A DNA stretch of 64,000 nucleotides from Psammoneis japonica (GCA_008632985.1 QPGO01000004.1:682001-746000), one strand, 5' to 3'. Numbered from the stretch's first letter, positions 1,315-46,601 are shown. Translations and numbers: made by a program. The notes: generated by a model not told the origin, from the letters alone.

Positions 1315-1544
1315 GATGGACAAGGCAGGATGACGCTTTTTTGAACTTACAGGCAGCTTTTCACTTGGGAAAGAGCGCAGAAGCGAAGAGTGCATACCCC
1401 ATTTTTTCATTTTTCACACAACATCAAACATCACGGATGGATCGCGCTTTCAAATACTTTTCATATTCAAGGAAGGATACGAATTAACGTTGGCATCTCT
1501 CACATTCAAATAACATTCGTAACTGGTTTTGTGCATTTAATCTA

Positions 1545-1995
1545 CGGTCAAAGTTTGTCTGTCTGTCACACCACTGGACACGTGGCAACTTTCATTGACT
1601 GCCAGTGGACAGCTGTGGATGCTGCACATGGCGGATGGTGGAGTGTGGAGGAAAAGGTTCTCAAATGTAATCTCCTGCAGAAGTGCATGTGACCTCATGC
1701 AGTGCACAAGCATTTGATGACCCTCGCTTGCAAAAAGAAGATGCCTCGCTGCTCTTTTTGAAAAAGTTTGTGCCCCCCAGCACCACCACAGCTGCCACAG
1801 AACAAGCGTGCTGCAAGGTTGCAGAGCACCAGAAACCATCACCATGCAAAAATGTTGTGTTTCTTGGGGAAGCCCCCATGAGAGAAAGTTTGCACCTCCC
1901 CAGGAATGTGAGAACACAAGAAGTGTTTGCGCAGAGGAGCACCAGGAGGAACTGTGCAGCGAAAAGAGAGTTTGAGCTTCCCCAGGAACAGCCCC
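1545..1995 (+). mobile_element. Truncated copy of a Tc1/pogo-like MITE (same family as 3328-3959)
   Basis: Starts TA|CGGTCAAAG and aligns by eye with 3328-3870 (e.g. ccactggacac..cacatgg.ggatggtggagtgtgg..ctcctgcagaag.gcatgtgacct). Right end is approximate. Confidence 0.6.
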
Positions 1996-3327
1996 CCGCA
2001 AGATGAAGTTTGGGGTGGTTGGCCAGTTGGAGTGTCCAATGGTGGAAAAATTGGTTTCCATGCAGATGACATGAAGACCCAAGGAAGGACAGCCGCTCCG
2101 ATCCATTTGAGCACTGATTTGGAACGAGCTCGATGAGCTGACTCCAGATGCGATCGCCGATGGTTCGGAGCTCCCGTCCATTGCACTGTTGGGTCTCACG
2201 CACTGTCCTGTGACAAAGCAAACCACGTGCTGCATCATGCAGCCAAGCTGCATTGATGCCATGGGGCAAAAAAGAGCAAGGTGTTGTGATTGCAACTGTC
2301 GCTTTGATGGGAAGCAAAAAATGTTCCAAACAAGAAGAGGCAACTGCCAACATCCGAGTGGGAGAGTCACAGGTGCCAACAATTGTTTGCAGCATCCAAC
2401 AACTGCATTCACTGTATGAGTCAGCTCCTCTTCTCTCTTTGGGAAAAAAATTCCATCGTTCCTTTTCTGTGTCATGCATGGTGCGTTGTCGACGTTGGAA
2501 ATCAAAATGTGTCATTTTCTGCATCTGCCATGGGAAACTGGCAGAAACAAAAATGATGCTTTTCATGCATGTGCATTCCTTAGATGCTGACAATGACATC
2601 TGCAGCAGAAACAATGAACCCAGTGATTGCAGACTCATTTGCGCAGCAGTCGTGAGTGCCCTGCTGAAAAGTCAGCAAACAGATTGCCAGTTGGTGTGTC
2701 TGAATGCTTTGTGACAGTCAACAGTGCCAAGAAATGCACAACCATCAAAATGAGCACTGTTTTGCACATTGTGGCCATTGATCTGCAAACAATCAAGTCC
2801 CGTGGCAGGAGATGCAGTGTGTTTTTTGTTGTTCTGAGCATTGCATGGGGTGCAACTTCAAAATGCCATGTCATGTGCGGTGATGACACACAGCTTCGTG
2901 TGCAAAAGCACTTGGTGATGATGATGTGTGAGCCTCAAGTGACCAGGAGGCAGGTGGGTAAATTCTCTCTGTCTGTGCATTTGGGGCATTTGTCAGCACA
3001 ATTTCAATGGATGAAAAAGATGCAGAGAGTCTGTCCAGCATTCACAATTTTTTCCGAGTGCCCCAATCCACTGATTTGCAGACTGTTTCAGTGCAATTCC
3101 TGCACAGGATTGTTCAAACAGCAGCTGTCCAGACATGCGTGTCCCCCAGAGTGCGTGCCTGCCCATGGCCCCATCATCACACAACATCACAGATGGACAG
3201 CTCTTTCAAATGATTTTCATGTGATGTTCATGCAAGAATTGGAGTGCAGTGCAAATTGACGTTGGCACCTCTCCTCAAACTTGACATTGACATTTACGCA
3301 ACTGGATTTGCAACACATGAAACAATG

Positions 3328-3959
3328 CAGTCAAAGTCTGTCTGTTTGTCTGTGCCACTGGACACTTGGCGAGCTTGTCAGCCTGACATTTTGTTGACCA
3401 CAAGTGGCTCCACCGGTGGGTGCAGCACATGGTGGATGGTGGAGTGTGGGAGAAAAAAATTTTCAAATGTGGTCTCCTGCAGAAGCGCATGTGACCTTGT
3501 GCATGTGGTGCACAGGCATTTGACAATCCTTGTGTGTGAACACCACATGATGTTGCGCTCTTCTTTTTTTAAGAGTGCAGGTGTGGGGTGCTCCTCTGAA
3601 AAGAGCTCCTGCAGCGTGCTGGCCACAAAAAGGGAGTCAACACTCCCTGGAGGTGCCCCCACAAAACACAAGCATTGCAAGTTTGCAGAGCACAGGGTGG
3701 GCAGAAACTGCTGCCAACCCACATGCAAAAATGTTGCTTGTGCCCCCACCCGGGAGGAACCCTGCTCCTCGGGAGAAACAAGTTTGTGCATCCCCCCTGC
3801 AGGAATGCAAGAACAAGAAGTGTTTGCAGAGTGCCAGGAGCACAATGAAAGAGTTTGCATCTCCCCAGTGGCTCTCACAACATGAAGTTTGCAGACCCCC
3901 CCAGAAGTTTGCAGAGAGTTGCCAGAGAGTGGCAGACACTGGACACTTGATTTTGACTG
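3328..3959. mobile_element. Tc1/mariner/pogo-like MITE, ~630 bp
   Basis: Termini CAGTCAAA...TTTGACTG with degenerate inner TIR. Flanked by TG on both sides, which fits a mutated TA target-site duplication. Confidence 0.65.
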
Positions 3960-4665
3960 TGCACAGCACCACAGATTGAACAATGTCCTCTCACCTGTCA
4001 TCTGTCTCATCCACCAGCCCTCTTTGTGCACACTTTTTACTCAAGAAATCTCCAGTGCACGATGGACAAGAAGAGGAGGCAATCTGGAGTTGGCCATTGA
4101 CACAAGTCAGGAACTGGCAACAGCAAAAACAAAAAGTGTTGTTGCAAAGGCAGGTTTTCCTTTCCAACACACTCCCTCCCAAGTTGATGTTAAAGCAGTG
4201 ACAGCCATTCCCTCCAACCTCACCTCTGACAATGCCGCCATCACTCCCTCTCTGTTTCTCCTGCAAACCAAATTCCTGTCAACCTGAGCTTCACTTTTGA
4301 TCCTCAAGCCTTTGATGAAACCCACAAAGATCCTCAACAAGCACTGCATTGTGCAGTGGTCAAAGCAAGAGATGCCATCTTGTCTCATGCCAGCACTCAG
4401 GAGCATGTGAGAGCCTGCTCAGGGGAGTCCAAGGGCTCTGCCAGGGGGGCTTGCCTGCAGGGGTGGAATGGCTTTTGCGTGTCGCCATCATCTGAGCAAC
4501 AAAGCAAGCACACTGCTGCACATGCTGACTGCATTTTGGGTGTCACCACATGCCACACGCGTGCACACGCAGCGACAGCGGCAAGAATCGCAGTGGCAGC
4601 TGTCCGTCCGTGCCACCTCCAGCCCAATCCAGGATGCAATGAACAAACCTCCATCTGACAACCCA

Positions 4666-5070
4666 CTGCAGACGCGTTCCAGCCCTACCGTAGGTGGGAC
4701 TCCGTGTGACATTGGGCCCGTAGAATTCTACGTGCGAGCTCCGTAGTACGAGAATTTAATTAATGGATATATTTATCTTCAACATCAAATAAACGCCCAA
4801 GTTTGTGGTACAATTATGCCTCTTACCACTCGACGTTTTTGCAACTTCGCCTGCCCTACGCGATTCTTAAGACATTATAGAATCGCGCTGTAACAAAAAA
4901 TGTCAAAAGTTGTTGGACGGATCGCTCAATAAGTGTACCGTAAAATGACACAAAATATCGAAAAAATCACGTAGAAATCTACGTGCGCGACATACGACGA
5001 GACTCAAAAAACTATCGATGTCACAGTTCAGTAGTACGAGGTCCCACCTAGACCTGGAACGCGTCTGCAG
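4666..5070. mobile_element. ~400 bp MITE-like element with terminal inverted repeats and an unmutated interior
   Basis: ctgcagacgcgttccag at 4666 and its reverse complement ending at 5070, plus an inner taggtgggac/gtcccaccta match. Interior is rich in TA and CG. Confidence 0.75.
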
Positions 5071-7376
5071 AAAGACACATGAAGTTAACACCAAGCATCA
5101 CACTTTTGGTGCTGGAATTGTGCTGTCCATGGTGGAACATTCAGAGATGACGACACTGCTGTCACCCATGCACAACCATCAAAGTGCGGCCTCCTTTGTT
5201 GCACCTTGTCTGTCATCAACAGGAGGAGGAGGTGGAGCCAATGGGAACAGCGCGGCTTCAACAGCTGTCATCCGAGGTGCACCGCTTCCACTGCTCTCAT
5301 CCAACACAGTGCTGCACCACTTGTTGACTGGCATGTGATCTGTGAAGGCATCCATTGCACTGGAAGATGCTCCACTTGTTTTGAAAAAACCAGAGTTTGG
5401 TCATTGGAAGGAGGACAGCCAGCATCTCTGACAGACTTTCAAGCATCGCAGCGCATCAACAAATGGGACAATGATGTTGGCTCACATTTTTCCTCAATGT
5501 CACCTTCTTGGAGCACCAACCTTGATTGACAAGCTCACTGTTGTCAATTGTGGCTTTCCCAGTTGCAAGAAAGTCAACAAACTCACTGCAAAATTTCAAG
5601 TGCAGGTTCTTGATGCCAACAAAATCAAACAGCCTGGCTGCACTTTGAGTGAGTGCTGCTGGGGCTGCAGAAGCAGAGAGACTCAGAATTGTGCCAAAGG
5701 CTGCATTGCTGTTTGACACCAAAGCAACAGTGGAAAGTGGAAAAGATGGCTGGCTCATCCAGATCTCAGCAGATTGCATCAGAGAGCAAGAAGCACAAAA
5801 AAAGAACGGTGCACAGCTGCACTGTCCAATGATGTAGAAAACAACCACCCCATCAGAAGCATCAACACGCGGGAGTTGAGAAACAAGGAATTGCTTGTGC
5901 AGTGAAGTGTGCAATTGCTTGTGGAAAAAGCAAAGTCTGTGGGCTCATCATCAGATGAAAGCATTGATGCACTGGCAGTTGTTGGAAAGAGGTTGAAACC
6001 AAAAGCTCATGCAGGAGGATGTGCTGCATTCAAAAGTTGGCCAGTGACAAAAGACATCATGCTGGTGGGCAATCCTCAAGCACTCAAGCAAGCAGTTGAT
6101 GCATCATCTGGAGGAGAGGATCCACCATCCAACTCATCTCTTCACATTTGGACACCGCAAGACAACAGCCCATTGCCTGCTGAGACAGAGACAAGACATC
6201 TCACAAATGCAAAATCAAGACCGCATCTGTCTTGGAAGCTTGCAGTGAAAATGCCAGCTGTCAGGAGGGCTGGGACAGCAACAGGGATGACAACTGGTGG
6301 CATCCAAAATGTGTGTTGTCACTTGCATCGGCTGCAAGAATGCAGCACCACATGCAGCACAGCAACAAGAGTGGACCCAGAGGTTTTGCAAAACACATCG
6401 CATGCTGGCAATGATCACACACCATGTGCTTTAGCAGCTGTGTCATTGGCGGCACTTGGACAACCATGAAAATGGAAGGGACAGCAATTGAGCTCAGCTT
6501 TCTCCTGGAATCAGCTGTTGTGGAGCTTTCAAAATCATGAAGCGCATCTGTGAGAAGCTTCTGTCCAACAAAAGCCTCTGGCATTCCACTGGATCAGAAA
6601 AGTCAACAAAGCAGCTGACATTCTTTTCTGCTGCATCTTCCCTTGCTTTCCAGTGCAATCACCAACCAACCAACATGCTGCTTCTGCATTGATCTCATTT
6701 GCCACATGGAATGTCCACAAGTGTTTGGCACTTTTTGTCCCATTGTTTTGCCTTGTTGGCATCTTTCAAATGTCACACCTGCACAAAAGGGGCTCTGTCA
6801 CCTGCAAAGCCTCAAAAACGAGCTGACACTGGTGACTCTTTGCCATCTGCATCTTCTTTTTTTCTGCCCACTTTGCCTCTTGAAGATCTCCTGCCTGTTT
6901 TGACATCTTGAGGCACTCCACAATGGCTCTTTCAACCAGTCTTTTGTGTTTTGCTTTCTGCAGAGGTGTTCTTGGGTTTGTCATCATTGCAAATTATGTC
7001 TTTGATTGGAGTTGCCTCTGGAACAATTGGGAAGGCCGCAACTGTCCAGTGGAAGCAGGTCCCAGCATCAGAGCTAAAAAGAACCTTCCACTGGGCATTG
7101 TCAACCATGACAAGAAAGAGATCACAAGGCCCCAGCTTGCTTTTGACATCATTGCAAGCATTTTTGACAAACTTGACTGCCCGTTGCCTCCAAGCAGTGG
7201 TTCAAGACAATGCCACATGAAAGGGCAAGCACATTGTGTCGCATGCACCTGCCTTTGAATGATGTTCCTGTGAAAATGTGAGGGCTCAAACTGCCGCTCC
7301 TGCTTCCACTTGGTGCATTGTGTGAGTTCTTTGGATGATGTCAGATGACAAACATGAAGCCAAGAGGTGTGACTGC

Positions 7377-7615
7377 TGACAGGATTTGAACAAGATTTTA
7401 GTTCATAACACACAATTGTGTGTGCTCTCAGTTCTGTGCAACGTGCACGATGTAGTTTGCTTTCAAGCCACTTGGCTCACAAGAATGACAACAGTGGCAC
7501 CAATGTCATGACACCAGTCTTTTGGCTCCTACAACGGCATCTGCATGGACACTCATCTGCCATTTAGACAGCAGTGAGGAGTTGTTGTTTTTCTTCCACC
7601 CACTTTTCGACGTCA
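7377..7615 (+). mobile_element. Solo LTR, copia family A
   Basis: TGACAGGATTTGAAC...TCA, homologous to the LTRs at 9691 and 17319. Flanks actgc/gctgc match 4 of 5 bases (probable TSD). Confidence 0.8.
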
Positions 7616-7929
7616 GCTGCACGCACCCTCAGCTTCTGCACTGGTTTCTCCGCACCTTCTTGCACTGATGTTGTCCTTCTCAGACAGTGTTGATTTGGCT
7701 CCAAAAAGCCCATTCTGTCCATGTTTTCCAATGGCACATCCTTGTTGCAGCATGCTGAGCAATGTTCATCAGTGGAAAACGATGAGTGTTGCGGCCTGTT
7801 GGCTTGCATGCTGGTTGTCATTCATTGTAATTTTCTGTTGTCTCAGAAAATTTTCTACACAGGTTCCAGTGCAAGTTCCACACAGATCTGCAGATGCTGC
7901 TGACGATCTGCATCTCATTTCCCCGGACC

Positions 7930-8380
7930 ACTTTTGTCCTTGCCAATTGGTCTTCAGTGCCACTTCTTTTCCTTGCCGTGCAATCAAGCACTTCACTCTT
8001 TGTGTGGTGAATGTGCTGCTTCTGTTGCAGCCCTTTTCAGCAAGAACACAAGTCATCCCATCATGCCATTTGATTGTTGTCCATTTGCTGCTGCTCCCAT
8101 TGGCTTTTCTGTGCAAGATCTGGCATTGTTTCTGCATGTTGCCACCCACCATCTACGTGTCACTTCTCCAGACTGCTTTTGTCCTTGCCAATTGGTCTTC
8201 AACCCCTCTTCTTTTCTCCACTGTGCAGTCAAGCACTTCACTCTTGTGGTGAATGCGCTGCTTCTGTTGCGGCCCTTTTCAGGAAGAACGCAAGTCATCC
8301 TGTGGTGCCATCTGATTGTCATCCATTTGCTGCTCCCATCGGCTTTTCTGTGCAAGATCCAATGCTGCTTCCACATGCAA
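7930..8380. repeat. Diverged tandem duplication, ~247 bp period
   Basis: ttttgtccttgccaattggtcttca...ggcttttctgtgcaagatc occurs at ~7931 and ~8177. Many of the differences are TG vs CA. Confidence 0.8.
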
Positions 8381-8409
8381 TGAATGTTTTCTCTGATGAC
8401 CTGCTCATC

Positions 8410-9935
8410 AACATCCACAAGGCCCTGCACGGTCTCTGCAGCTCTGGCCTCAGGTGGCATGAACGCTTTGCTGATTGTCTGCTTGCTGAGGGATTCTTCC
8501 TGTGCTGTGCCAAACCCAACATCTGGTTGCACCAGAATGGTGACCACTGTGAACATGTGGCAGTGTGTGTGGATGATTTGGCCCTTGCCATGAAAGATCC
8601 TCAGGCCTTCATTGACACTCTCACAAGAAGCACAGGTTCAAGCTCAAGGGCACTGGACCTCTAGAATTCCATCTCGGCTTCGACTTCTGTCATGACTCTG
8701 ATGGCACACTGTGCATGGCTCCTTGCAAGTGCATTGAATGCATGGTCGAGAATTGTGCGTCACTGTTTGGGGAGAAACCTCACACCAATGCACTGTCACC
8801 TTTTGGGAAGGGAGACCACCCCAAGCTCAACACCTCCAAACTGCTGGAACGTGAAGGCATCCAACACTTCCAATCCCTCATTTTTCCCTGCAATGGGCTG
8901 CAACATTGCCACAGCCATCATGTCCCTCTCCAGCTTCTGTGCCACACCTCGTCAAGGCCACTTGGATTGGGCCGAATGCATCTGTGGATTCTTGTCCAAG
9001 ATGCAACACATGGCACACTTCGAGTGTGCACCAAGGAACCCGATTGTTCAGACCTTCCCAAGCTCATGCATGACTGGGCTCAAACCATGCACGGTGATGT
9101 GAAGGGACTGATCCCTGAAGATGCACCACCCAAGCCCCTTGGCAAGTTTGTCACCACAACACACTGTGTTGACACAAACTTGCTCCATTGCATGCTCGCT
9201 GGATGATCCATCACACTGGCATCCTTCACATCCTCAACAAGTTTCCAGCTGTTTGGTTCTCCAAGAAACAGGCTGCAGTTGAGACCGCAACTTGTGGATC
9301 TGAGTTTGTCACTGCCAGGACATGTGCAGAACAGACCATTGATCTGCGCACCATGCTGCATCACCTTGGAGTCCCCATCCATGACCAATGTCACATGTTG
9401 GGGACAACAAGTTGGTTGTGGACAGTGCCACCATCCTGCACTCTAAGTTGCACACAAGCGACACACGGCCCTCTCATTTCATCGTGTGCCCAAGGCCATG
9501 CCTCTGGTTTCCTTGAGCTCCACTTTGTCGAAGGTTCCCGCAACCCCGCTGACATCCTCAGCAAACACTGGAGATGCTCCCAGGTTTGGAACCTCCTCCA
9601 TCCTCTCATGTTTTGGAACTCTGATCCTGAGGCCTTCAGTGAATCTGATTTCGAATCCATTGCTGTGGACTCCTCAAGCAAACTGGGGAGTGACAGGATT
9701 TGAACAAGATTTTAGTTTGTCACACACAATTGTGTGTGCTCTTGGTTCCGCATGTGACATGCATGATGCAGTTTGCTTTTGAGCCACTCGGCTCACAAGA
9801 ATGACAACAGCAGCACTGACATCACGAACCAGCCTTTTGGCTTCTGCAACGGCATCTGCACGGATGCTCATCTGCTGTTTAGACAGCAGCAAGGAGTTGT
9901 TGTTTTTCTTCACCCAGTCATCTTCAATTCTGTCA
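8410..9935 (+). mobile_element. 5'-truncated Ty1/copia (CoDi-like family A) remnant: RT, RNase H, PPT and 3' LTR (9691-9935)
   Basis: KALHGLCSSGLRWHE, VAVCVDD (=YVDD), KKQAAVETATCGSEF and NPADILSKHW. PPT aactggggag lies directly before the TG..CA LTR. Frameshifted. Confidence 0.9.
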
Positions 9936-11064
9936 CTTCTTGCAACAGCAGCAATGGCGTTCAGAGCTGCAAACCTGGTGAGTGCAGGCACAGGAGCACG
10001 TCAATTGACGGCGATGCACTGGGCTGTGCGCAAAACTGTTTCACCTGCCACCTCTTGTTCGAAACCCAAAATTGGTCAAATTGACATTTTGAGCACACCT
10101 TGCGGCCAAAATTGGCTGTTTTCTTTCAATCTGTTGGTGGACCCATGCAAGAAACAATCAGAAAGTCAATTTTTTGACACAGGGGATTTCCAAAAACTGA
10201 AAATGGACCTGTTCTGCTGATTTTCAAGAAAGGGTCTGCCGGCAGTTCATTTCCTTGTTGCTTTTGGTGCAAACATGCGCAACTGTCAACTGAAAATTCC
10301 ATGTTTTTGACTTTGAACAAGCACTTCCTTCTCACTCAATTTTGCCCGTGGGAGATGTTTGTTCCCCGTGCACAATTTGCACCAGAGACACAGTCGTGGT
10401 GGTCCAAGCGGTTTTGTGTCCAGCACAGCGCAGAAGACGCAAGAAGCATTGCACAGCAAAAAACCAATCGATTTTGGAAACAAAATCGGCTTTTGCACAG
10501 ATGCCAAAAAGCAGAGGACATGCCGGTTTTTTGCTTGTGCCTGCTGCAGACAGCCCCACAGTCCATTGTGAGTCTGTGTTGCACGCGTCGACCGTTTTCG
10601 CGCACGCAGCTCACGGCTCAGTTCAGTGCGAATGAGATTGGGAAGCAAGGTCGCGGATGAATTCGCGGCAAAGGAGCAGGCCCCACGCAGCTACCGGTAA
10701 GCTGCCGTAGACTGTCACACCCTGTATGCCACCGGTGCAGGTGTTCGTATTGTAGTTCCAGTTCGCGGCAAGCCGCAGTTCGAGCTTGAAAAAACATTTA
10801 TTGGACACAAGATGAAGACTTACTGTACTTCTTACTTTTAAAGCATGTGTATTTATTCTTTAATTTTGCGAACATTTATTGGATTAAAAGGCGAAGACAT
10901 ACTTACAGATGTTTGCTTCTGTTGTCGATGCATGATCCAGGCGTGAATCAACTCATCCATCTCCCGTTTCTCACTTTTTCTCTCATTATATCCCGTCTCT
11001 AACAATTGTTGCCATTTTTGTTAAATAACAATAGCATCGACAATTACAAGAGAAACCAAGGAAA

Positions 11065-12920
11065 ATGAAGTTGGCGGCAACAAACATGCTGTTCCTCCTC
11101 GCTATGACAACGACAGGACTCACTAAGGTCTTCGGAGTTGGTGAGAAGGCACTCGGTTTTCCCGAGAACGGGAAAGATCTCCCTCCACAGAAAAAGTCGG
11201 TGGTGGCACAAGGCGCGGCTATCTTGTTTTTAAAACCAGACTCGGGCGGGACATCTTCACCGAAAAACGACATCGACGGAACCCCACCTTTAAAGCAAAC
11301 ACAGAAGAATCAGCAGTGGGTGGACAACTCGATCAAGCCACAGAAAAAAGGAGAACAGGAAAGCAATCCGATCGGGAGTGCATCGAACCTAGATGGCCAG
11401 TCCGTCAAGCCTCCACGCGGTCTAGTGCAGGAGCCAACGAAGAGAGACCAGCAGCGATGCATCATCGCGCGCCCGCACAAGGTATGCGAGCACCAAAAAC
11501 ATAAACCAGAAAAGTTTAAGACATGCAAGAAGAAATGGAAGACCCGGGTAAAATTCTGCCAAGCCCGAGCCCAGCAGGAGGGGGCGAAATGCGAGAACTA
11601 TCCATTTTGTTTCGAGGCCGATTTGTGCTGTCTTTTCAGCAAGCAAGACGCTACCCAAAATCCTCGTCCGACAATGAAGCCAACGTTGACGCCAACAACA
11701 ACGCCGGCCCCCACATGCGCTTTCCCTTGCAAACATTTCTGCATCGACTCGAGTGATGACTGCTGTGGCGAAGCCGGATACTGCGAAGACACAAAGTGTT
11801 GGCTAAACCAATTCGACGAATACAGATGCATTGACTGGAACGCAACTTGTGTGTCTAGCTGCGGCGTGAGTTGTCTCGAAGCAGGCGAAGACTGCTGTGA
11901 TGATACCCATCCAGATCTATCGTGTACGAAAGGGACAAAGTGCTGGACCAATAAGCGAGGATCACTACGCTGCATCCGTCGAACGCCACCGTTTGCTCAA
12001 AGGGCCACTGGTGCTCGCCAGGCAAAACCTGCTGTGGTAACAGCTGTCTCGACAAAGGCGATACATGCTGCGATGATACGACGGGATCCTGGTGCGAAGA
12101 CAGTAAGTGCGTCAAAAACTCAAAAGGAGAGCACCGTTGCATTTCGTGGGATGCCACAGAATGTTCGCAGGATCGTTGGTGTGTGCCGTCGGAAATTTGT
12201 TGCGGATCTTCTTGCTGTCCGGAGGCCACCTCGGAATGCTGCAATGGAAATTGCATGCCCAAGGGGAGCACCTGCTGCCCGTCAGGCGATCACTGTCCCG
12301 CAGACAGGGACTGCTACAAGGGTAAGTGTTTTCCGAAAGGCGTCTCCATATGCCCCAACGACATAAGCTTTTGCAGCAATCTGGAGCAAACATGCTGCAA
12401 GAACCCCAAGACGCAGGAGCTGACGTGCTACAGTCCACGGTGTCCATTGCCCGGCGTGGCGAAGACCGTGCATGTAAAAGGAAGCGAAAATATCTTTTCT
12501 TTTGACTATCCCAAGTTTCACAAATGGTGTAACCTTCGCAAATATCGCAAGGGATGGCGCCTTGTTTGGGACACCACTTTTACCGAGAACATTCCGGACC
12601 AGTTTGAAGATTTGATTGAAGATGCATTGGAAACGGCAGCAAAGGAGTGCGTCATTACGGCAACTCTAAGGTCGGGAGCGGTCCAAGCCGCGAAATGCAT
12701 CTTGACAGTAGGAGCCGGTTGTGCCGAATGGGTGTCCGTTTTTATAATGCTCTTAAAGGAATTCGGCAAGTGCGTTGGGCCCAATATCGCGGACCAGCTC
12801 AAGAGCGACGTTTCAGATTACATTGAGACGGTGAATGATCGGCTAAAGGAAGCTATCCAAATTGAGAGCTACGAAGAGCGCAAGTCGGATATAACTTGTC
12901 ACTGGCCGTGCAGTTGCTAA
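11065..12920 (+). CDS. Secreted cysteine-rich repeat protein (~620 aa if the 1-nt frameshift at ~11977 is corrected)
   Basis: Signal-peptide-like N-terminus and a PT-rich linker. CxxxxDxCC repeats continue in the shifted frame (NATVCSKGHWCSPGKTCCGNSCLDKGDTCCDD) into ORF 12183-12920. TA and Tyr content are normal. Confidence 0.7.
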
Positions 12921-13800
12921 GGAGAAGGATGGACAGTGAGCTAGGTGAGAATTTATGAATTTCACGTGTGCAGGTAAAGGATGTAGCTTGATTGGATGAA
13001 GAAGTAGTGTAAAGATTCGTTGTCCACATATCATATGACTCTATTCATGCGTGGAGGAAGAGCCCAGATCAGCTTCTCCACCACACTGCATGCCGGTTGA
13101 AGGTGAAATAATTTCATTTGACTAAGTCATTCTAGACTTCGAAAGTGGACTGAAGTCGCACATTGGCGCCGTCGATCTAAGGTGTTGGCCCGCCAACACA
13201 CCGCACGCTTTTGTGCGAGTCGTCAGACGAGATTTGAGACTACGACTGCTGAAATACTCAGCTACTCGCTCTCTAGAGAGAGCTATGCCAGAACTAGTAG
13301 TTGGTGGGCTACGGAATGTCCTCATTGCACAAAGTGACGGGACAATAAGTAACAACCCAATGATTTGTCATTTCTCTTCACCAAAATCCACATCAGGCTC
13401 AGATATCATCTGAGTTCGAGAGAATGCATGGAGGAGCAAGGAGTAAACGCCGAAAGCCGACGGTACATACCTGGAATGACTTTTCTGCAGCAACTGTGGG
13501 CGAGCCAGGGTCCTAGCCAGACTAATCTTGGGGGTACACACACAACACACAGTGTGAGCGAAGCAGGCACCGCCGCCATTGTGGATTGTGGAGCCGCGAT
13601 GCGGCATGCGGCCCACGGCGCAGCCTCGCCGGGGAATGAGGCGCCCGCGGAGCGGAAAAAAATGCGCACAGACAACATCCAATAAAAGTACGTTGTTACT
13701 CTGCAGAACCGGCAGCACACATCTTAGGCGCTGTCAAAGCCTGGATTCATGCCTGTGCTGCCTTCTTTCTTGTTTCTAAAGTCTGACCTTGCACTTTGCA

Positions 13801-14230: not shown

Positions 14231-14234
14231 GGAG

Positions 14235-24799: not shown

Positions 24800-24804
24800 C
24801 CTGA

Positions 24805-36800: not shown

Positions 36801-37050
36801 ACAAGCAGTTGCCATCAGCACACAGAGTGGCTCTGGTGGTGCAAAGCTCAGCAAATCAGAAATTGGTGGGTGTTTCTGCTGCAACTGCAACACATCCCAG
36901 TGGAGGTGTTGCACCCATCTTCAGGAGAAATGCTCAGATGCATTGTGTTGTGGGTGATGACATTGCATGGCTTCTGCAAATGTCATCCTTCAAATGAAGT
37001 TGTCAAACAAGATTGCAGTGATTTCATTGGCTGAGAAAGAAAACAACACG
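24805..37050. repeat. Large degenerate repeat tract depleted in both TpA and CpG; probably one or more DNA transposons, including the Sola-like core
   Basis: Near absence of TA and CG. Fragmented ORFs. Internal tandem duplications at 29377-29438, ~32905-33110 and ~35306-35583. Confidence 0.6.
28300..29440 (+). mobile_element. Degenerate Sola-like (Sola2-type) DNA transposase core
   Basis: HTGGCAKQHQ at 28816 (back-mutates to TDGCAKQYR), APGHRKGEVDRIGA at 28924 (to APGHGKGEVDGIGA) and G*VAM*HIPCACDGC at ~29350. These match the DGCxxQY / HGKxxxDGxG / CxCxxC pattern recalled for Sola2. Confidence 0.6.
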
Positions 37051-37055
37051 GTGTT

Positions 37056-40000
37056 TGTCAGTTGACCCATCATGCGATGGACAGACTGTTTGTGGGTGAT
37101 GACCAGACCCTTTTTAGACAGTCGTGCAGATCTCTCTGAGATCTGCCTCTCATTCTCTTCTGCTGGCACTCATGTTGTCACAGTCCCAGTGCTTGGGGAG
37201 TCTCTCACACTTCCATCATCATTGACCTTCAGCATTCTGTCACTGTGAAGACACGAGTGCTGGTGGAAGAAAATGAGAGGCAGATCTCAGAGAAATCTGC
37301 ACGACCATCTAAAAAGGGTCTGGTCATTGCCCACACGACAGCTCATGGTTGCTGCCAGAGCAAAAAACATGCGTCAAATTGGTTGCTCAACACAGGAGGA
37401 ACATGTTGAGCAAAGACAGTGAAGGACAGAGGCAGCACGTGGGGAGCCGTTGCAACATTGTCAAGATTGTCTGGTGCCATCATGCTTGAGATCATGTTGC
37501 CAGTGGGGTTGCAGAACAATGGCATCCTTGGGATGTCTGACAGGTTTGCCAAACATGCCAAGCTCATGAAATTGATCAAGTTGATTGAACTCTCCAGCAT
37601 GCCACTCTGGCCAAGTGGAAAGTTTCTTGAGGTGGTGGCGGGTGCAACCACCCAATGATTGCTCTTCTGGGGCAATGGCATGAGAGGAGATTGCATGGAC
37701 ATTAACAACACCATTGTCACAGTCAATGGAGACAGGAGGAGAGACCTTGTGATCAACAACATCAGAGAAATTGGTGTCTGGATGGCAAATCGCAGCAACA
37801 GCGTGTGTGTCGGCATTGGCAATTTCCAGGACATGTTCATGTTCAGGACCCGGGGCAGGTGAGAAGACATCATGTTCCACCAGGGCACATTGCAGGGCTT
37901 TAGAGTCAAGATGGCGTTCCGGTGAAAAATTCAATTTCAAAGTGTGTCTTGCCTGAGTCACAGGCCTGTCGCAGACGTTTGGTTGCATCGTCAGCAGCAA
38001 AGACTTGTTGGCCATTGACAGACACAATGCAAGCACCCTGAATCTCATTCTGTGTTGCCTTCAATGACGAGAATAATTGAGCAGCAGGAGCACCTCGTGT
38101 CATCACAGTCCTGGTGTTTGGGGAGTCTTTCACACCTCTGTCATCATTGACCTTTGGCATTCTGTCAGGTTGTGGCCTTGCGCTGTGCCACAGAACTCTG
38201 CGCCACGCTTTTTGCTTTGATTCATTTGTTTTGTGAGCTGATCAAGCAAGCCTCATTGTCTGTTCCCAAAACATTTTTTTCCTTGCTTTCCCAGCATTTT
38301 TCATGATCGTAGAAACACACCAGATTTCCACATGTGCATGACCAAAAATGCCGCCACCAAGGCCAACCATGGCATCTCCGAGCGGTGCAAACCCTCCTCT
38401 GACATCCATCACAGAGATCTGTCATAAATTCCAACAACATGACACTCTGCCGCATGTCCACACATCTTTGAACATGCTTTGTGCAGATGCCATCTGTGCC
38501 TTAGACCCCCTTTTTTAAGATCCTGAGCATGCAACACCCAAGATGAACTTTTTGGACTTGCTGGGTGCATGTCTTGTCAAAGAAGCAATCCCACCTTGTA
38601 CGGCAGACCCTGCAGACATGCAATCCATCAAGATGATCCTAGATCAAACTCCGGTTCACATTGCAGACCCCACCAGGCCTCGCGCACTTTGTTTGACTCC
38701 TGAGAGTCTCTCTTCTGTGATCAAACTCAGTCTTCTTCAACACAAGCAATGTCTCTGTGTTCTCACATCAACGCAACACATGCACTTCATTCCCAATGTG
38801 ACATCAAATTGCAGAGACTGGAATGAGTTTTCTCTCACTCCATGCAAGTTGAAGCCACCCCCTAAACCCTCGCCTTCAACAACTGCAACATCATCAACAA
38901 TTGGTGCAGATGACATTGTTGCAGCCCTCAACAAGTTTGCATTGAACCAAGCTCCGCCTGCAAGCACTGCTGGGAAGACTGCAGGAACTGCTCCTGTGTC
39001 CATTGCTTCAAAACATCTGTTCAATCCCAGTGCTCTGCCCAAGGATGTCCGTGAACAATGCAATCACAAGGAACATGGTGACATCACCTTGCAGAGCTCA
39101 CTTGCTCCACATGCGAATGGCTTTTGCCATTGTGTTGATGTGTCTGATTGCCTCATTCTCACTGATGGAACTCTTTTCATTATGATCTCGACCCCTGATC
39201 AGTTCCAAGAGCCAACTGCATGCCATGATGATTCTCCACCTGGAATTCATGCATGGCATCAAAATTTCCAATGTCGTGCCTTCGATTCTGGCTGTCATGT
39301 GCACTCTCTGTGGTGTTTCACCAAGGACCATGGTGGCAAGAAGGGTTTTACGATTGGCAATGACCCAGCTGACTGCCTGCCGCAATGCATGCACCTGCAA
39401 TGCAAGGAAGCTGAGAGCTCCCTCCACAAAATTCTCTCCCATGCCGACATGTTCCCCAAGAACAGCAAATGCCATCGGATTGTTGCTTCATGTTGCAGTG
39501 ATGGATGCAAGGCCCTCAAGCAGATTCCATGTGAGAATCATCCAGCCTTCAATGATGAAGCTGCTGGACCAGTCAATTCCTGTCCTGTGCAAGGAAATCT
39601 TACATTGAAGGACCATCACATGGTTTTCAAGCAGGATTTCTGCAGTTGCGTGCCTGCATCTTTGATGCTGACTCCAGTGTGGATGATCCTTGTGAGATGA
39701 CAATCTTTGTCAAGAACACCAAGCACTCCAAGTTCTTGTCTCGGGCTGCACGCGATGAACGCAAGTCCCCCACGATGCTCAGATTGTTGAGACTCTCTCA
39801 GATTTCCTGCATCAATCTGACAGTCCTGCTGTCTCCAATTGCACTCCCATCTGCAACCCATGCTGCAAATGGGCCGCAGCTCTGATGACACTCAATGTGG
39901 TGCCATTGGCATCAATGCTCTAGATGCTCCGGATCTCCCTCTCATTGAAGCTCCCAGCAAGGATCCGCCCAACAATGCCAGTCCCCCGGATGACACCATC

Positions 40001-43000
40001 ATCCCCAGCCATGATGCCATTGACACCTTGTGTGATGAATTGGCTGCTCTTGATGTCCCATCTGCTGATGCAGACCACATCCTCCATCATGCATGCTCTG
40101 CCTCAGTCTACAAACTCAAGACTGCTCCACAGGAAGCATCCAAGAAACCTTGTTTGGTTTGCTTGGATGACCACACCTTTTCCATGATTGTCCAGCATTG
40201 AATGATGCTGAGTGCCTCAAGGGTTTCCACATTTGCTTTTGTCAATTCTTGAAACAGGAGGTTGCTGTGCACACTGCAGCATTCCAGGGTTCCCAAGGTT
40301 TGTTGCCATCTGCTGAGCAACTTGCAGAAAATCCAACTGACTCTGTTGCCAAGTCTCAGGATTTTCAATTGGGCCATCGCAGTCAGTTTTGGATCTACGA
40401 CAATGCAGCCCACTTCCTCCCAGCCAAGACAAGACGAGTGTCAGTGGGGTGATGAAAAAGGGACTCAATGCCTCGTCATCCACCGCTGCAAAGCCTGTTT
40501 CTCCTGTGACTGCCAAGGACACCACCAACTCTTCAGACCCAATCAACCTGATCGACCCAATCAACCTGATTGACCCAATCAATGCCACCAAACTCCTGGA
40601 TGATGATCCTGTCTTGCCACTTGCAGATGACAAACCTGGCTCAGATTGTCTGGAACAGGGGAGGGAACATCATGACTTGAATGAACATGTCGAGTTCATT
40701 GTCCTCGCCTGTGACGACATGGCCATCAAAGATGGTGTTGCCATGGTCAACTTGGTTTGTGTTTCTCCAATTGCTCCATCCCAGGCTTGTGAAACCAGCT
40801 CACCTGATTTGGATCAACCTGCGTTCCAAGTCAATGCTGCAAAGTTTGCACTGCATGAACATTGTGCTCAACTGGGTGCTGGCGCTGACATTGCTTGTGC
40901 TGGTGACCGTGACCTCCTCCATCAACACCGAGAATTCACACAAGAAAACCCATGTCCATTGGCTGTCAACCCCACTCTTGGAGACAAAGCTGTCCTGGTT
41001 GGTTTTGCCCACCTGTGTGTGCCCGCAGAGAATGTCAATGGTCATGTTGAGATCCGCACATGCCACCATCCTCAGATTCAATCTACCCTGATGGATGAAT
41101 GTTTGCTGCTGCATCACAATGGTGCTCGTCGCACAGACTGCAATGTCAATTGCATCCTCAAGTTTCATGATCTTGGCACCTGCAAGTTTGCAGCATGCCA
41201 CAGATTGCACAAGAGTCAGGACATCATCATGCATGGAAAGTTGATCAATGGCAAATGCTGTGCTCACCCCCTTCTTCTCTTAGAATCTCATGATGAACTT
41301 GATGCATCAATTGAACATCTCAAGACTGCTGACCCATCATTTGCTTGGGAGTGTGGAGCAGTTTTGGCGCACATGATTGAGACACATTGTGGACACCAGC
41401 ATGATGCTCTCCATGTGGAACGCAAGTTGATTCCTTGAGTTTGCCAGGACATGCCATTTGAGAAGTGTGCTGAGAAGAACACACCCATCTAATCCCTCAA
41501 GGCTGATGCCGGGTGGTGCAGATTGGGACCTGCATTTGGAAATCCTGGTGGAGTCATGGGAGGAGCACAATCAAGAGGTCCATGGTCATGATGTGGACAC
41601 AAGGCAGTCATCTTTGAGATGACAGGCTGAGGCTGAACTCACGGCAACACACAACAAAAGACAAGAGCATCTGGCTAAAGACAGAGATGCGCTGATGGAT
41701 TCTGTAGAAGACCACCAATCCCACTCCACTTTGCAGACAATGAACTGGATTGCAATGGTTAAAGTGAGACTGAAAGACAGCCTCAAGAAAGCAAAGTGCT
41801 CTGCACTTTGCAGCACTTGCTCTGTGGCCAGTTATTTTGGTGGGATGTCACCTTCCAGTGATGCCCATTCTGGCTGATTCACGTGAGCTTCTGCTGCACT
41901 GCAAGGTGCACTGTGAGTGCGGGCCGGCGCCAGCCTGGCTGGCAAAGGAGTGACAGCATTAAAACACAGATCTGGTTTTTTTCCCTCAAGGCTGATGCTG
42001 AGCACCTTTTGTGGCATCAACGCCTTGGCCACCCCAGTGATCACCATCTCTGCCATGCTCATGAACAAGTTGAGGGTGTTCCCAAGTTTGCCCATGGCAT
42101 TTCTCTGCCAGATGCTTGCCCTGCATGCATTTGAGCCAAGCAGACCAAGGAACTGGCTGGTCTGAATGCCACTGTGACCACCACTCAACCTTGTCAAGGT
42201 CTCACTGTTGACTTTTGTTTCTCTGGTTTGCAGTCCAAGAACAAGGAACGTGCTGCGGACTGTGTTGGTTTGATTGGAGAGACTGCGTGTTGGATCACTG
42301 TCCATGATCACACTGCAAAGCACCTCCATGGTGCTGCTTGTGTTTCCAAGGCTGCCCCATTGAATTGGATTTGCCACTTTCTGGAAGAGCACTCACCAAA
42401 ATGTCCAGATGAATGTGTGTTTCTGGATCAAGGTGGCAAATTGCATCAGAATCCAGCAGTTCAGCAACTTTTCAAGGATGACCTTCATTGTGCAATTCGT
42501 CCCACTGGAAACGACTCTTCAAACCAGAGTGGCCCAGTTGAACAGAGTCACTTGACTGTTGCAAATGCCATTTGGGCCATGCTGATTGGTGCCAATCTGC
42601 CCATCAAGTTTTGGTCACATGCTTTTCACCATTGCCTCCAGATCAAGAATGCTGTGCCTTCTTGAGGGCAACCTGCTGCTCCGATTGCACTTGCAGCTGG
42701 TCAAAAGGATGACTTCAGTGCTTTTTGAACCTTTGGTTGTCGTGTTTGGGTCCGCACTTTGAATTGCCATCCAGCAAAATTCTGGACTGCATCCCGCAAG
42801 GGCATCTTTCTTGGTTGCCTGCCGGATGCCATGAAGAATGTCTTGTGGCATGATGCTGAGATGTCCCGGGTCAAGATTGCAAAGCACATCCATTTTGACG
42901 AGGGCATGATTGATTTTGATCATGGCTCTGTCCCTCCGAATGTGGTTCACTTGGAACAAACCCAGGATGGCAAGCCATTCCCTGCTGAGACCAAGGAGAC

Positions 43001-45704
43001 GCCTGTGGATGAATTCCACTTTTGTGGCAACCCTTTTGCCAAGACAATTGTGCATGCGTTGAAAGGCCCATTTGCTGATCCCAACTTTAGCCCACAATTG
43101 ACCACGGATGAATTGTGTCAACGGGTTTTTGTTTCGGACATCAAACGTGGTGCTCCTGCTGCTTGATTGTTCTCATCATTGGGCAACACGGAACAAGACT
43201 CAGGGCGCTTACATTGTGTTGGTTGATGGTCAATGAGTCTTCACTGCTGACAACACAACCAAACATCTGCAACAGCCCTGTGACTCAGGCAAGACACACT
43301 TCACAAAATTGAATTTGCACCAGAATGCCATCTTGACTCTAAAACCCTGCAACGTGCCCTGGTGGAACATGACATCTTCTCACCTGCCCCAGATCCTGAA
43401 TGTGAACATGTCCCAGAAATTGCCAATGCCGACACACACGCTGTTGCTGCGATTTGCCATCCAGGCACCAATTTCTCCAACATTGTTGATGATGAGGTCT
43501 CTCCTCCTGTCTCCATTGACTGTGACAATGGTGTCCTTAACATCCATGCAATCTCCTCTCATGCCATTGCCCCGGAAGAGCAAGCATTGGGCACTTTCAC
43601 CCACCACTGCCTCAAGAAACTTTCTGCTTGGCCAGAGTGGCATGCTGGAGAGTTTAAACAACTCTATCAATTTCACAAGCTTGGCATGTTTGGCAAACTA
43701 GTCAGATGTCCCAAGGATGCCATTGTTCTGCGACCCCACTGGCAACATGATCTCAAGCATGACAGCACCAGACAATCTTGACAATGTTGTGAGACAGCTC
43801 CCCATGTGCTGCCTCTGTCCTTCACCATCTTCACTCAACACATTCCTCCTGTGTCAAGCAACCAATTCAACGCATGTTTTTTGCTCTGGTGGCGACCATG
43901 AGCTGTCGTGTGTGCAGTGGAGATGCTCAAGATGCCCATGCGCACTCTCCCAAACCATCTCACCCTGCATTTGTGGCAATTGATGAGGCCCATGCAACTT
44001 GGCACAAGTCTCACTTGGCATTGAGCTTGACCAAAGCATGGTTCTGCCAATGCAACATGCTCTCCAAGGACACCCAGAAGCCGGCGTGCTCTGGGAGACT
44101 CACATCAACAGCATTTTGTCTGATGTGACTCCACTTTTTTGCAACACTGCCCATGGCAAGTGCGTTTGCTCTGCCACATTCAAGGGACACAAGATTCTGT
44201 TGTTGCGCCAGGTTGATGATTTTTCTGTCATGTGTCCTGATGAATCCTGCATGACCAAGATTTGTGACAAGATTGGCAAGGCATTGCAACTTCCCTTGGA
44301 AGACATGCCACCTTTCAAGCATCTTGGCCTTGTTGAGGACTTCAACAGTGTGGACATCCATCAATGTGATGACTCCATTTTGGTGTTGCAGTGCACAGTT
44401 ACATTGAATGGGTGTGCACTTCACACGGTTGGGCAAAACCGGTGGCACATGAACCCACAATGGACCACAAGGCAACACCCACACCCATTGATGCTGTTCC
44501 GGAGTTGCACAAGATGATTGGTCCTGCTGACACCAGAACATGCTGAACTCCAACAGGTGGCTGGTTTTGGATGTCGCACCTTGCTTGGTGAATTGTTGCA
44601 CGCCTGTGTTGTTTGCAGATTGGATGTTGGACAAGCAATCACTGCCCTCTCCAAGTTTTCCTCATGTCCTGCTGTGGTGCACTGTGATGCATTAAAGGGG
44701 TTGCCAAGTGTCTTCAACAAACCAAGGTTTGGGAACTCAATTGTTGGAAAAATTGATTGACCCCACCTCGACACCCTTTTGAGCGGTTGACAAGTGACCC
44801 TGCTCTCTCGTCCTTCCCCACTGCTGCCTGTCCCCATCAACTGCTTGCCTTCTTGGATGCTGCCTGTGGCGATGATCTTTGCAACAGCCACTCCATGACT
44901 GGCTGTGCATGCATGTTGGTGGGTGCCGTCATTTCCTTCTGATGCAACACTCAGTTGGTGACTGCTGCTGGCTCCACAGAAGCAGAGTTTCATGCTGCTG
45001 GCAACACTGCCAAGCATGTTCTGTGTCTTCGCCATGTCTCACACAACTGGCTTTTCTCAGGATGGCCCCACCCCATTGTGCATTGACAATGAGTCTGCCA
45101 TCAAAATCACAATCATTCATTCCTGCAGAGCGTTCGCAACACATTGACACTCGTTCTTTGTAATTCAGGAGTGGAAAGCGGCGGGCAAGATTGTCACCCA
45201 ACATGTCCCTGGCATTGTCAATCCTGGTGATGACCTCACAAGGCTCTGGGACAGGCACTGCATGCACGCCATGCATGCTGCATGAAGGGACACTGCCGTT
45301 GACATTTCATTTGTGGCGGTGCTCCTCCTTCTGCAGAATTGCCCCTTGTTGATTGATGCGTGTTGGGCTTGGACACCTCATTGTGTCCCGCTGTCTGGCT
45401 TCTTTCATCATCCCTTCTTTTTGGTTGACCTGCACTGTCTTCCATTTTTTAGACATTGCAGATCAGGGGAGGGTGTCAGTTGACCCATCATGCGATGGAC
45501 AGACTGTTTGTGGGTGATGACCAGACCCTTTTTAGATGGTCATGCAGATCTCTCTGAGATCTGCCTCTCATTGTCTTCCACCAGTGCTCGTGTCATCACA
45601 GTCCCAGTGCTTGGGGAGTCTTTCACACCTCCATCATCATTGACCTTCGGCATTCTGTCAAGTCTTTCACACCTCCATCATCATTGACCTTCGGTGTTCT
45701 GTCA
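37056..45704 (+). mobile_element. Second Ty1/copia family (B), degenerate full-length element: 187-bp LTRs at 37056-37242 and 45474-45660, rearranged 5' end
   Basis: PBS-like ggttgtggcc at 38168 and PPT aggggaggg before 45474. LWHQRLGHP..CPAC zinc finger, integrase FLDQGG, RT LLRQVDDF, RNase H STEAEF/IDNESAI/NPGDDLTK. Flanks are gtgtt and gcatt. Confidence 0.92.
41510..41981 (+). mobile_element. 5'-truncated non-LTR retrotransposon 3' end nested in copia B, with 17-bp TSD
   Basis: tccctcaaggctgatgc at 41493-41509 and 41982-41998. Insert encodes WEEHNQEVHG..NWIAM..SYF, resembling the WxxRNxxVHG C-terminus of diatom LINE ORF2. Confidence 0.7.
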
Positions 45705-46601
45705 GCATTTTGTGTGTCATGTGCCCCCCATTGACAATGCCATGGACATCTGCGAAAGTTGCAACACCACCGCTTTGCAAATTCACACCGCAGACAGAGA
45801 GGACCAACTGAGACTGTTTCAGAACAATGCTCCTTCGACGCAGATTGGAGGCCAATGAGAGACAGTGGTCTGTGCCTCCCCCCTGCATGATGAGTGGGGG
45901 GTTGTTTTCCACAGCAGTGCGCTTCTGCGATGCTGATGGCATCATAGAAGCGGCAAGCAAGTCTGCAAACACCTCCGAGCCGCAGCAAGCTCATTCCTTT
46001 CTTTCATCAACGTTGCACTGCACGTTGATGAGACGAGAGAGCGAGTTTTGCTTGCAGCCCGCGCCGCCCACCCTTAGCGGCTCTCTAGCTGGGACTCATT
46101 CTCCAGGTTCCCAGAGCAAGAGTTCTAGCTCGAGGTCTGGTGTTCGTGGCTTACGCCACAACCAACCAGAGAGCTCGATCAAGAGTGCATCAGACACTCT
46201 AGAGGAAGCAGAGTCAGAGAGTGATAGAGGGCTATCGACCCATCGATTGGAGTGTTGGACACTCTTGAAAAGATACAATTTTAATTTTAACTGTTTGGTG
46301 ATTGGCAGGAAAACTAAACGTCAAAGTCGCCAAACTGAATCGGGCGGCAATGGCATTGAAAACAAAACCGCCATGCATGGAATCGATGTGATAGCTCGTC
46401 ATTAATTCACCAGGAAAATAGCTTGGAAGGGATGAGGCACTCGATCTGAAAGATTTGTCGATCTTTTGCGCTTTGCACTCGGCGGCCCATTGTTCACGCT
46501 CATTGGTGCGGCAGAGCAATGGTGGCATCATCGTACACACTACTCGTGCTATCGTTCCTCTTTCTCGGTGATGTGTGCGTTCTGGCGCCTCAACAGACGC
46601 A

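Follow-up and report, generated by a model that had tools for sequence, protein, structure and literature searches.

TA-depleted blocks and the elements within them

The 64,000-nucleotide stretch of DNA analyzed here, referred to as the window, comes from the diatom Psammoneis japonica (GCA_008632985.1, QPGO01000004.1:682001-746000; positions are counted from its first letter) and contains genes and ordinary intergenic DNA interrupted by transposon-rich blocks in which the dinucleotide TpA (TA) is nearly absent and TG and CA are in excess. The preliminary description of this sequence attributed the pattern to an A:T-to-G:C mutator that acts on TpA in both strands and is confined to repeats or heterochromatin. 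In the present analysis, the ratio of observed to expected TA (TA obs/exp) was scored in 1-kb bins, and the blocks were called by a two-state hidden Markov model (HMM) on the TA positions of the 64-kb window. TA obs/exp is 0.25 over the window as a whole. It is 0.00-0.23 in the bins 2001-4000, 5001-10000, 14001-46000, and 61001-62000, where TG+CA obs/exp reaches 1.36-2.11, and 0.33-0.84 in the bins that lie fully outside the blocks (11001-13000, 47001-61000, and 63001-64000); the bins that straddle an edge take intermediate values of 0.28-0.49. The HMM delimits four TA-depleted blocks, the edges of which fall within 1-112 bp of the intervals given in the preliminary description, i.e.:

1544-4685: block 1, repeat DNA without an assigned class; 8 TA in 3,142 bp (TA obs/exp 0.04, CpG obs/exp 0.29)
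5087-10691: block 2; 16 TA in 5,605 bp (TA obs/exp 0.04)
13778-46074: block 3; 135 TA in 32,297 bp (TA obs/exp 0.066), with 3598 TG and 3473 CA
61092-62263: block 4, isolated and intergenic; 3 TA in 1,172 bp, without a match elsewhere in the window

Combined, the four blocks contain 162 TA in 42,216 bp (obs/exp 0.04-0.07), whereas the remaining 21,784 bp contain 857 TA (obs/exp 0.56-0.95), so that both the near absence of TA from the blocks and its normal frequency in genes and ordinary intergenic DNA agree with what had been described. The edges are abrupt, on a scale of tens of bases; for example, there is no TA in 9881-10691, and 21 TA occur within the following 310 bp.

In the depleted DNA, TG and CA each occur about 1.56 times as often as in the rest of the window. 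Besides TA, only CG shows a strong decrease (ratio of depleted to normal DNA, 0.37). The ratios of AA/TT, AT, AC/GT, and AG/CT are 0.93-1.00, i.e., unchanged, and those of GA/TC (0.88), GG/CC (1.12), and GC (1.19) are modestly shifted. Per 1000 positions, TA changes by -35.5, CG by -36.1, and TG+CA by +78.6; the two losses are nearly equal, and each therefore supplies about half of the TG/CA excess. The CpG depletion, with a CpG obs/exp of 0.13-0.31 in most of the blocks and an exception in the youngest copia element (0.89), was absent from the preliminary description. Its argument that neither deamination of 5-methylcytosine (5mC) nor fungal repeat-induced point mutation (RIP) explains the signature holds for the loss of TA, but not for the roughly half of the TG/CA excess that is CpG decay. 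A further consequence of the depletion concerns the stop triplets: TAA and TAG together occur 231 times in the depleted DNA, compared with 2105 occurrences of TGA. Open reading frames (ORFs) of at least 150 aa number 15.6 per 10 kb in depleted DNA (66 in 42 kb, both strands) versus 9.6 in normal DNA. As TGA is the only stop that is still common in TA-free DNA, gene callers would over-predict there.

The following sequences were identified within the blocks or across their edges:

1387-1743: copy of a repeat that is crossed by the block edge at 1544; TA and CpG are retained to the left of the edge, in 1387-1543
8405-9935, plus strand: 3' fragment of copia family 1, with 88% identity to 16027-17566; the pair differs by 33 doubles in which one copy reads TG and the other CA (TG/CA doubles)
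13831-14243, minus strand: fragment of a host-type vWA/alpha-kinase gene (Alpha_kinase, E 8e-21); 0 TA
14238-17566, plus strand: truncated copy of copia family 1 (TA obs/exp 0.035, CpG 0.25)
19195-24799, minus strand: full-length young copy of copia family 1 (TA obs/exp 0.155, CpG 0.89, GC content 0.565)
20887-23274, minus strand: open pol frame of the young copy, protease-integrase part; 796 aa from stop to stop, 1 Tyr
37056-45660, plus strand: copia family 2 (TA obs/exp 0.069), with long terminal repeats (LTRs) at 37056-37242 and 45474-45660 (91% identity)
41862-42131, 42729-43163, and 43987-44514: gag_pre-integrs, SH3_retrovirus, and RVT_2 domains of copia family 2, all weak Pfam matches

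The young copy of copia family 1 has 277-nt LTRs (aligned 19195-19471 and 24524-24800) that begin with TG and end with CA. Its true end is at 24799, as given by the terminal TG...CA and a perfect 5-bp target duplication (CCTGA). Together with the order protease-integrase-reverse transcriptase (RT), these features are those of a Ty1/copia element of the diatom CoDi-like type. A tblastn match of 1,022 residues links the family to RVT_2-bearing polyproteins, including integrase-domain proteins of Phaeodactylum and Nitzschia. The pol frame with a single Tyr and all eight of the peptide motifs quoted for it in the preliminary description were recovered on the minus strand. This 796-aa frame matches no Pfam family at E <= 0.001, yet 488 homologues were found by sequence search; the diatom homologues mostly lack a precomputed integrase domain. 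The ends of copia family 2 carry no matching target duplication.

The kinase fragment corresponds to the C-terminal ~150 of ~720 aa and ends exactly where the truncated copia copy begins. It shares 70-79% identity with named proteins of Thalassiosira, Cyclotella, and Conticribra (Thalassiosirales), and up to 81% in tblastn. About 50 bp separate the edge of the large block (13778) from the end of the fragment that encodes the C terminus (13831).

Pfam was run on 14 + 140 + 139 ORFs of the window (293 in total). The matches in the depleted blocks are limited to RVT_2 (two, weak), SH3_retrovirus, gag_pre-integrs, and Alpha_kinase, and those to Hydrolase_4, DUF6415, and DmmA-like_C were below threshold and were taken as chance. 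The claim that unrelated elements are affected is therefore upheld for two copia families and the kinase fragment, but not for LINEs and DNA transposons, since no LINE or DNA-transposase domain was found among the 293 ORFs. No tRNA genes were found in the window. The Pfam ORF scans assigned no element class to ~1.5-8.4 kb, 25-37 kb, and 61.1-62.3 kb, where the long ORFs look like by-products of the missing TAA and TAG. Contig depth in the Logan collection is 76-1894 in every bin of 30-46 kb, versus about 60-80 on most of the gene side, which fits the presence of repeated families, contig depth being a rough guide. Tandem duplications are also present in the hypermutated DNA at 7903-8334 (units of ~245 bp, 81-88% identity) and 35323-35577 (171-bp spacing, 83%).

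Ancestral state, timing, and context of the TA loss

Copia family 1 was aligned with 40 homologues, and a column was taken as a conserved Tyr column when Tyr occupied at least 60% of it. At the 16 columns of this kind, the window has 8 Cys (TGY), 6 His (CAY), 2 Phe, and no Tyr, while the other conserved residues are retained in 77-100% of their columns (Cys in 2 of 3). This bears out the earlier reading of the copia motifs as TAY changed to TGY or CAY. The Tyr content of all 120 listed homologues is 2.3-4.9%. Similarly, the four conserved Tyr columns of the kinase fragment are occupied by Cys, His, Cys, and His. The RT ORF of copia family 2 retains Tyr at none of its six Tyr columns (Cys, Cys, His, Pro, Ala, and Thr), three of which carry Cys or His, the other three being in poorly aligned ends. 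The same polarity is seen in non-coding DNA. The TAs of the repeat copy at 1387-1743 align to TG (eight), CA (one), and AA (one) in its mutated paralogue at 3148-3549; 9 of the 10 TAs compared are in the unmutated left part, and the tenth is at 1668. The CpGs of the unmutated part align to CA or TG in the paralogue. On the evidence of these alignments, TA is the ancestral state in the blocks.

The LTRs of a retrotransposon are identical upon insertion, and the differences between the two LTRs of the young copia copy therefore arose after integration. The pair differs at 20 positions, all of which are transitions: six TG/CA doubles, six pairs of CpG with TpG or CpA, one pair of TA with CA, and one other. 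CpG decay alone would be expected to produce 0.2 TG/CA doubles, versus the six observed, and only 1 of 133 sites outside any TA, CG, TG, or CA differs. The LTR pair of copia family 2 has five TG/CA doubles. Such doubles are those produced when TA is converted nearly completely, and independently in each LTR, to TG or CA. If the invisible changes in the same direction are as numerous, each LTR of the young copy would have had about 16 ancestral TA, of which about 78% were converted per copy. The decay of TA is then estimated, from comparison rather than from a measured rate, to exceed that of background sites by a factor of some hundreds (order of 10^2-10^3) and that of CpG within this element about tenfold. 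The change occurred in chromosomal DNA after integration.

Both strands are hit alike. The large block contains TG and CA in nearly equal numbers (3598 versus 3473), and a runs test (z = +2) gave no same-strand runs. An impression by eye that Cys and His cluster along the pol ORF was dismissed by this region-wide test. The youngest element has a TA obs/exp of 0.155 and a CpG obs/exp of 0.89, compared with 0.035-0.07 and 0.13-0.31, respectively, in the older elements, which fits a continuing process rather than a single burst. With the polarity, the post-integration timing, and the strand symmetry in agreement, it is very probable that, as the preliminary description had proposed, transposon DNA is subject on both strands to a TpA-specific A:T-to-G:C mutator.

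The TAs that survive in the blocks are not a random sample. YTAR accounts for 82 of the 162 survivors, versus 161 of 857 TAs in normal DNA (Fisher p = 3e-16), and the test over all context classes gives a chi-square of 101 (df 9). ATAC/GTAT survives least (survival ratio 0.09). Sorted by 3' neighbor, the survival ratio is 0.033 for TAT, 0.07 for TAC, 0.14 for TAG, and 0.16 for TAA, i.e., loss on the adenine strand follows the order T > C > G > A, and a model that adds the contributions of the two strands gives a reasonable fit to the ten contexts by our own arithmetic. In tRNA, the target A34 of adenosine deaminases always follows U33, and for TadA the next base is C. This anticodon-loop context of TadA and ADAT2-ADAT3 resembles the T-A-Y preference found here, a likeness that comes from context alone and serves as a lead only.

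The depleted sequence is reproduced by sequencing run X1, which contains 82% of the words sampled from 40001-50000. Its k-mer contigs over depleted sequence match 397 nt with 0 base differences (7 gap positions) and 530 nt with 1 difference, at a word depth of 53-55 versus 60-63 over the adjacent genes. The longest X1 contig is 315 kb, which indicates accurate reads. Run X2 has coverage in 9 of 30 bins, most of them on the gene side, and nothing was drawn from it. Some X1 contigs bridge copia family 2, joining 37147-38156, 34393-45569, and 37207-45681 and leaving out 952-1004 bp, 11,175 bp, and ~8.5 kb, respectively; a third LTR-like piece of this family lies at 38107-38170. These joins and the extra LTR piece suggest that copia family 2 also exists in other arrangements, or as recombined copies, elsewhere in the genome.

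Similar sequences appear in other collections. Among 150 representatives that match the RT of copia family 2, 15 have less than 1% Tyr, mostly with higher Cys and His (P0400, P0401, P0405, P0407, P0412, P0414, P0417, P0477, P0484, P0497, and five more). The 10 Tyr-poor representatives that were looked up are all from ENA/JGI metagenome contigs of 689-2361 bp, and several carry Cys or His at the usual Tyr motif positions in a check by eye. Judged from these protein sequences, hypermutated copia fragments appear to occur in environmental assemblies.

Targeting, proposed mechanism, and alternatives

The DNA that escaped hypermutation bears on how the process is targeted, and comprises or adjoins the following features:

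673-1413, minus strand: ORF of a DUF1295 gene, with its 5' end about 130 bp from the edge at 1544
4666-5070: 405-bp MITE-like element (miniature inverted-repeat transposable element), unmutated and inserted inside hypermutated DNA; 31 TA (TA obs/exp 1.0, CpG 1.56)
10692-13777, plus strand: spared island; 110 TA (TA obs/exp 0.57, CpG 0.95)

The host gene in the spared 3.1-kb island encodes a protein with a signal peptide and repeated Cys-rich modules, for which no Pfam or Atlas match was found. Two overlapping frames make up the gene (11035-12363 and 11955-12917, plus strand), with an intron or a frameshift between them. The genes that flank the blocks keep normal TA, and one of the genes in the normal part of the window encodes a Tubby-domain protein, the named best matches of which are all from diatoms (Fragilaria, Seminavis, Nitzschia, Mayamaea, and Ditylum; top identity ~60%). 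Together with the matches of the kinase fragment and the copia elements, these point to a diatom host, probably one close to the Thalassiosirales by protein similarity, and not to Bigelowiella. The terminal inverted repeats (TIRs) of the 405-bp element are perfect over 17 bp and extend imperfectly to about 35 bp; its target duplication is ambiguous, with the palindrome TGCA at both ends. The element may have been spared because it is too recent or too short, or because it is not silenced. The edge of CpG decay coincides with the TA edge at seven of the eight boundaries. Transposons of diatoms have been reported to be CpG methylated via DNMT5a, and a RID-like DNMT4 of unknown function to be present in some diatoms, in the parts of that literature consulted.

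The best explanation of these observations as a whole, to which we give a probability of about 60%, is that the near-saturating TpA-to-TpG/CpA transitions, which befell the transposon-rich DNA after integration and hit the two strands independently, site by site, are due to an adenine-deaminating enzyme in silent, CpG-methylated repeats. The enzyme would depend on a T on the 5' side of its target and favor a pyrimidine on the 3' side. In the most likely chemistry, adenine would be deaminated to hypoxanthine and read as G when the DNA is copied. The enzyme probably works only in silent CpG-methylated repeat chromatin, or its products are poorly repaired there. As an assignment of the candidate enzyme, adenine deaminase is tentative and has slightly less than even odds. 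The process creates no in-frame stops, so that the elements would be disabled by mass missense change (Tyr to Cys or His) and the loss of TA signals while their frames stay open; the process may serve in genome defense.

Several observations weigh against this explanation or limit its reach. TpA is palindromic, and A-to-G on one strand is indistinguishable from T-to-C on the other. The methylation of the blocks is deduced from the CpG decay and the literature on diatom transposons, and CpG is not depleted just inside the boundary at 10691 (0.87). Run X1 is probably the assembly's own sample, so that its agreement with the depleted sequence rules out assembler error but is not independent of the assembly. 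Among 80 metagenome loci related to copia family 1, TA obs/exp is 0.27-1.03 (median, ~0.72), and just one of them (L042) is strongly TA-poor, the other low values of 0.44-0.53 being within the ordinary range; none of the 120 listed homologues of the family is Tyr-poor. Taken together, these two surveys indicate that the process is not general in diatoms. The copia sequence at L042:801-3516 has a TA obs/exp of 0.12-0.19 (0.09-0.20 in the 1-kb windows of L042); the contig is normal up to position 800. In the copia frame, 8 of the 11 TA are Tyr codons (median share in 60 relatives, 0.26), two in-frame TGA stops occur, and the sense strand is richer in TG (1.98) than in CA (1.54). L042 may reflect partial hypermutation under selection or an avoidance of TA, and it looks as if non-essential TA has been purged under selection.

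Several of the alternatives keep the process in chromosomal DNA. Targeting could depend on homology sensing of the RIP type, in which duplicated DNA above a length threshold is mutated regardless of chromatin. The single-copy host gene island is spared, as would be expected, and a single-copy contig of run X1 starts at 46031, only 43 bp from the block edge at 46074. The sparing of the 405-bp TIR element would also follow, the threshold of RIP being a few hundred base pairs. However, the repeat copy that contains the edge at 1544 remains homologous as far as 1387, and CpG decay has the same edges as TA loss. With the spared TIR element, the mid-repeat edge, and the shared CpG edges considered jointly, a silent methylated domain fits at least as well as homology sensing; the latter, as the sole determinant, is unlikely, and targeting by silent, methylated chromatin appears to be favored. 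The earlier proposal of confinement to repeats or heterochromatin accordingly stands in that only transposon-rich blocks are affected, but RIP-like recognition of repeats is not borne out by the spared 405-bp element and the edge at 1544. A different substitution for the proposed chemistry would be the same TpA-directed process acting on thymine (T to C), through a TpA-specific modification such as hydroxylation that is miscopied or mis-repaired, or through over-active repair of the T:G type. All of the results fit T-to-C at R-T-A equally, TpA being its own reverse complement; the co-located CpG decay suits a repair activity working in methylated DNA, and the modified thymine of dinoflagellate DNA is enriched at TpA. 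Nevertheless, we know of no mutagenic pathway that gives clean T-to-C transitions at nearly 100% of sites, and the authors who described TpA mutation in Bigelowiella natans favor, as a proposal in the text of their preprint, the deamination of adenine (Mettrop et al., bioRxiv 10.64898/2026.01.13.699255). Action on thymine is thus distinctly improbable. Error-prone repair synthesis of the Pol eta type recruited to methylated DNA, suggested by the WA hotspot of this polymerase, would account for the link with methylation. That hotspot includes AA, however, and Pol eta also produces transversions, whereas AA/TT is unchanged here (ratio 0.95) and the LTR mismatches are transitions in 20 of 20 cases, which makes this route very improbable.

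The remaining alternatives place the change outside the chromosome. Because most of the identifiable affected sequences are LTR retrotransposons, ADAR-like editing of retroelement RNA, or editing of cDNA, before integration might be considered, and ADARs prefer a 5' U (bioRxiv 10.64898/2026.01.13.699255, in the text of the preprint). The two LTRs of one insertion, however, show opposite outcomes at six sites, the outcomes are strand-symmetric and unclustered, the host kinase fragment and non-coding repeat DNA are affected as well, and one repeat copy has a portion that stayed unmutated in place. The opposite LTR outcomes, the strand symmetry without runs, and the affected host gene fragment together exclude pre-integration editing of RNA or cDNA to all practical purposes. 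A sequencing or assembly artifact, e.g., systematic miscalls of modified bases in long reads, would resemble the observed pattern in that both TA and CG read as TG/CA within sharp domains. Yet run X1 yields the depleted sequence again in its k-mer contigs, with 0-1 base differences at single-copy depth, identical LTR contexts yield opposite outcomes, and Tyr-free copia fragments are present in unrelated ENA/JGI metagenome assemblies, so that an artifact is extremely improbable.

Comparison with known mutation systems

One known process is the deamination of 5mC in diatom transposons, which affects the same blocks, gives the same products (TG and CA), and accounts for about half of the excess. 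It cannot remove TpA, however, and the young copia copy has lost most of its TA with CpG still at 0.89. Fungal RIP, the functional analogue, likewise hypermutates repeated or mobile DNA by heritable transitions within sharp limits, spares nearby genes, and disables its targets permanently. RIP changes C to T mainly at CpA, makes TpA and stop codons, and lowers GC content, whereas here TpA is destroyed, GC content is higher (0.565 in the young copia copy), and no in-frame stops arise. The TpA excess and the gain of stop codons that mark RIP are not seen in the blocks, where TA obs/exp is 0.04-0.07 and TAA and TAG are few. Hyper-editing by ADAR and mutation by APOBEC3 share with the present case the deaminase-type transitions, the nearest-neighbor preference, and the aim at selfish or viral nucleic acids. 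These enzymes act on RNA or single-stranded cDNA and leave strand-coordinated clusters; here, integrated DNA is changed on both strands, without clustering, and in sequences that are not retroelements. Strand-coordinated clusters common to both LTRs, as an ADAR- or APOBEC-type process would leave, were not seen.

The hypermutation also has a practical side. Hypermutated elements escape profile searches, as did the 796-aa frame without a Pfam family, and they give rise to false long ORFs; both effects can distort the annotation of genes and repeats.

The closest counterpart is the hypermutation described in Bigelowiella natans, which supersedes the statement in the preliminary description that no account of such a system was known. 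According to the text of the preprint, de novo mutations in mutation-accumulation lines of this species were nearly all A to G or T to C, all at TpA, and arose at about 1000 times the background rate in integrated giant-virus and virophage regions; the genome contains 124 clusters of 1-kb windows poor in TA and rich in TG/CA, and TA-poor coding sequences are enriched in RT and DDE domains (Mettrop et al., bioRxiv 10.64898/2026.01.13.699255). An ADAT2 homologue was proposed there as a candidate, and DNA activity of ADAT2 homologues was cited (bioRxiv 10.64898/2026.01.13.699255). TpA-to-TpG/CpA transitions with both outcomes, in foreign or mobile DNA and far above background, are thus common to that report, as far as its text goes, and to the P. 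japonica window. The two cases differ in three respects. The host of the former is a rhizarian and that of the latter a diatom, i.e., a stramenopile; the depletion in B. natans is moderate in the figures given in the text (rho 0.45 in the nucleocytoplasmic large DNA virus region, with the virophage region not depleted), whereas obs/exp is 0.04-0.07 across the transposon blocks here; and the B. natans evidence consists of direct de novo mutations, whereas the present evidence is comparative only. The text of the preprint, supplements excluded, does not contain "CpG," "diatom," or "stramenopile," and relative to this text the CpG co-depletion, the 3' neighbor preference, and the LTR test are new. 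No report of TpA loss in diatom transposons was found in the literature searched, most subscription journals being outside its scope.

Relative to the text of that preprint, the window carries the same mutational signature as B. natans, now in a stramenopile and at saturation, the signature being otherwise known from one species. Recurring in a second eukaryotic lineage, only distantly related to the first, the signature becomes a candidate for a widespread route of genome defense rather than the peculiarity of one species. It is conceivable, although the odds are against it, that diatoms and chlorarachniophytes share a TpA-editing enzyme, acting on adenine or thymine and guided by chromatin, that is directed at silenced elements, and that some transposons purge non-essential TA in response. 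Diatoms are reported to be transformable and CRISPR-editable in the sources consulted, and the mechanism is therefore directly testable in them. The adenine base editors in laboratory use are known to have required the evolution of tRNA deaminases, for which reason an enzyme from nature with A:T-to-G:C activity on chromosomes would be of direct interest to biotechnology. If the enzyme is indeed shared by the two lineages, it would stand beside fungal RIP as an A-to-G counterpart and would be a DNA adenine base editor of natural origin.

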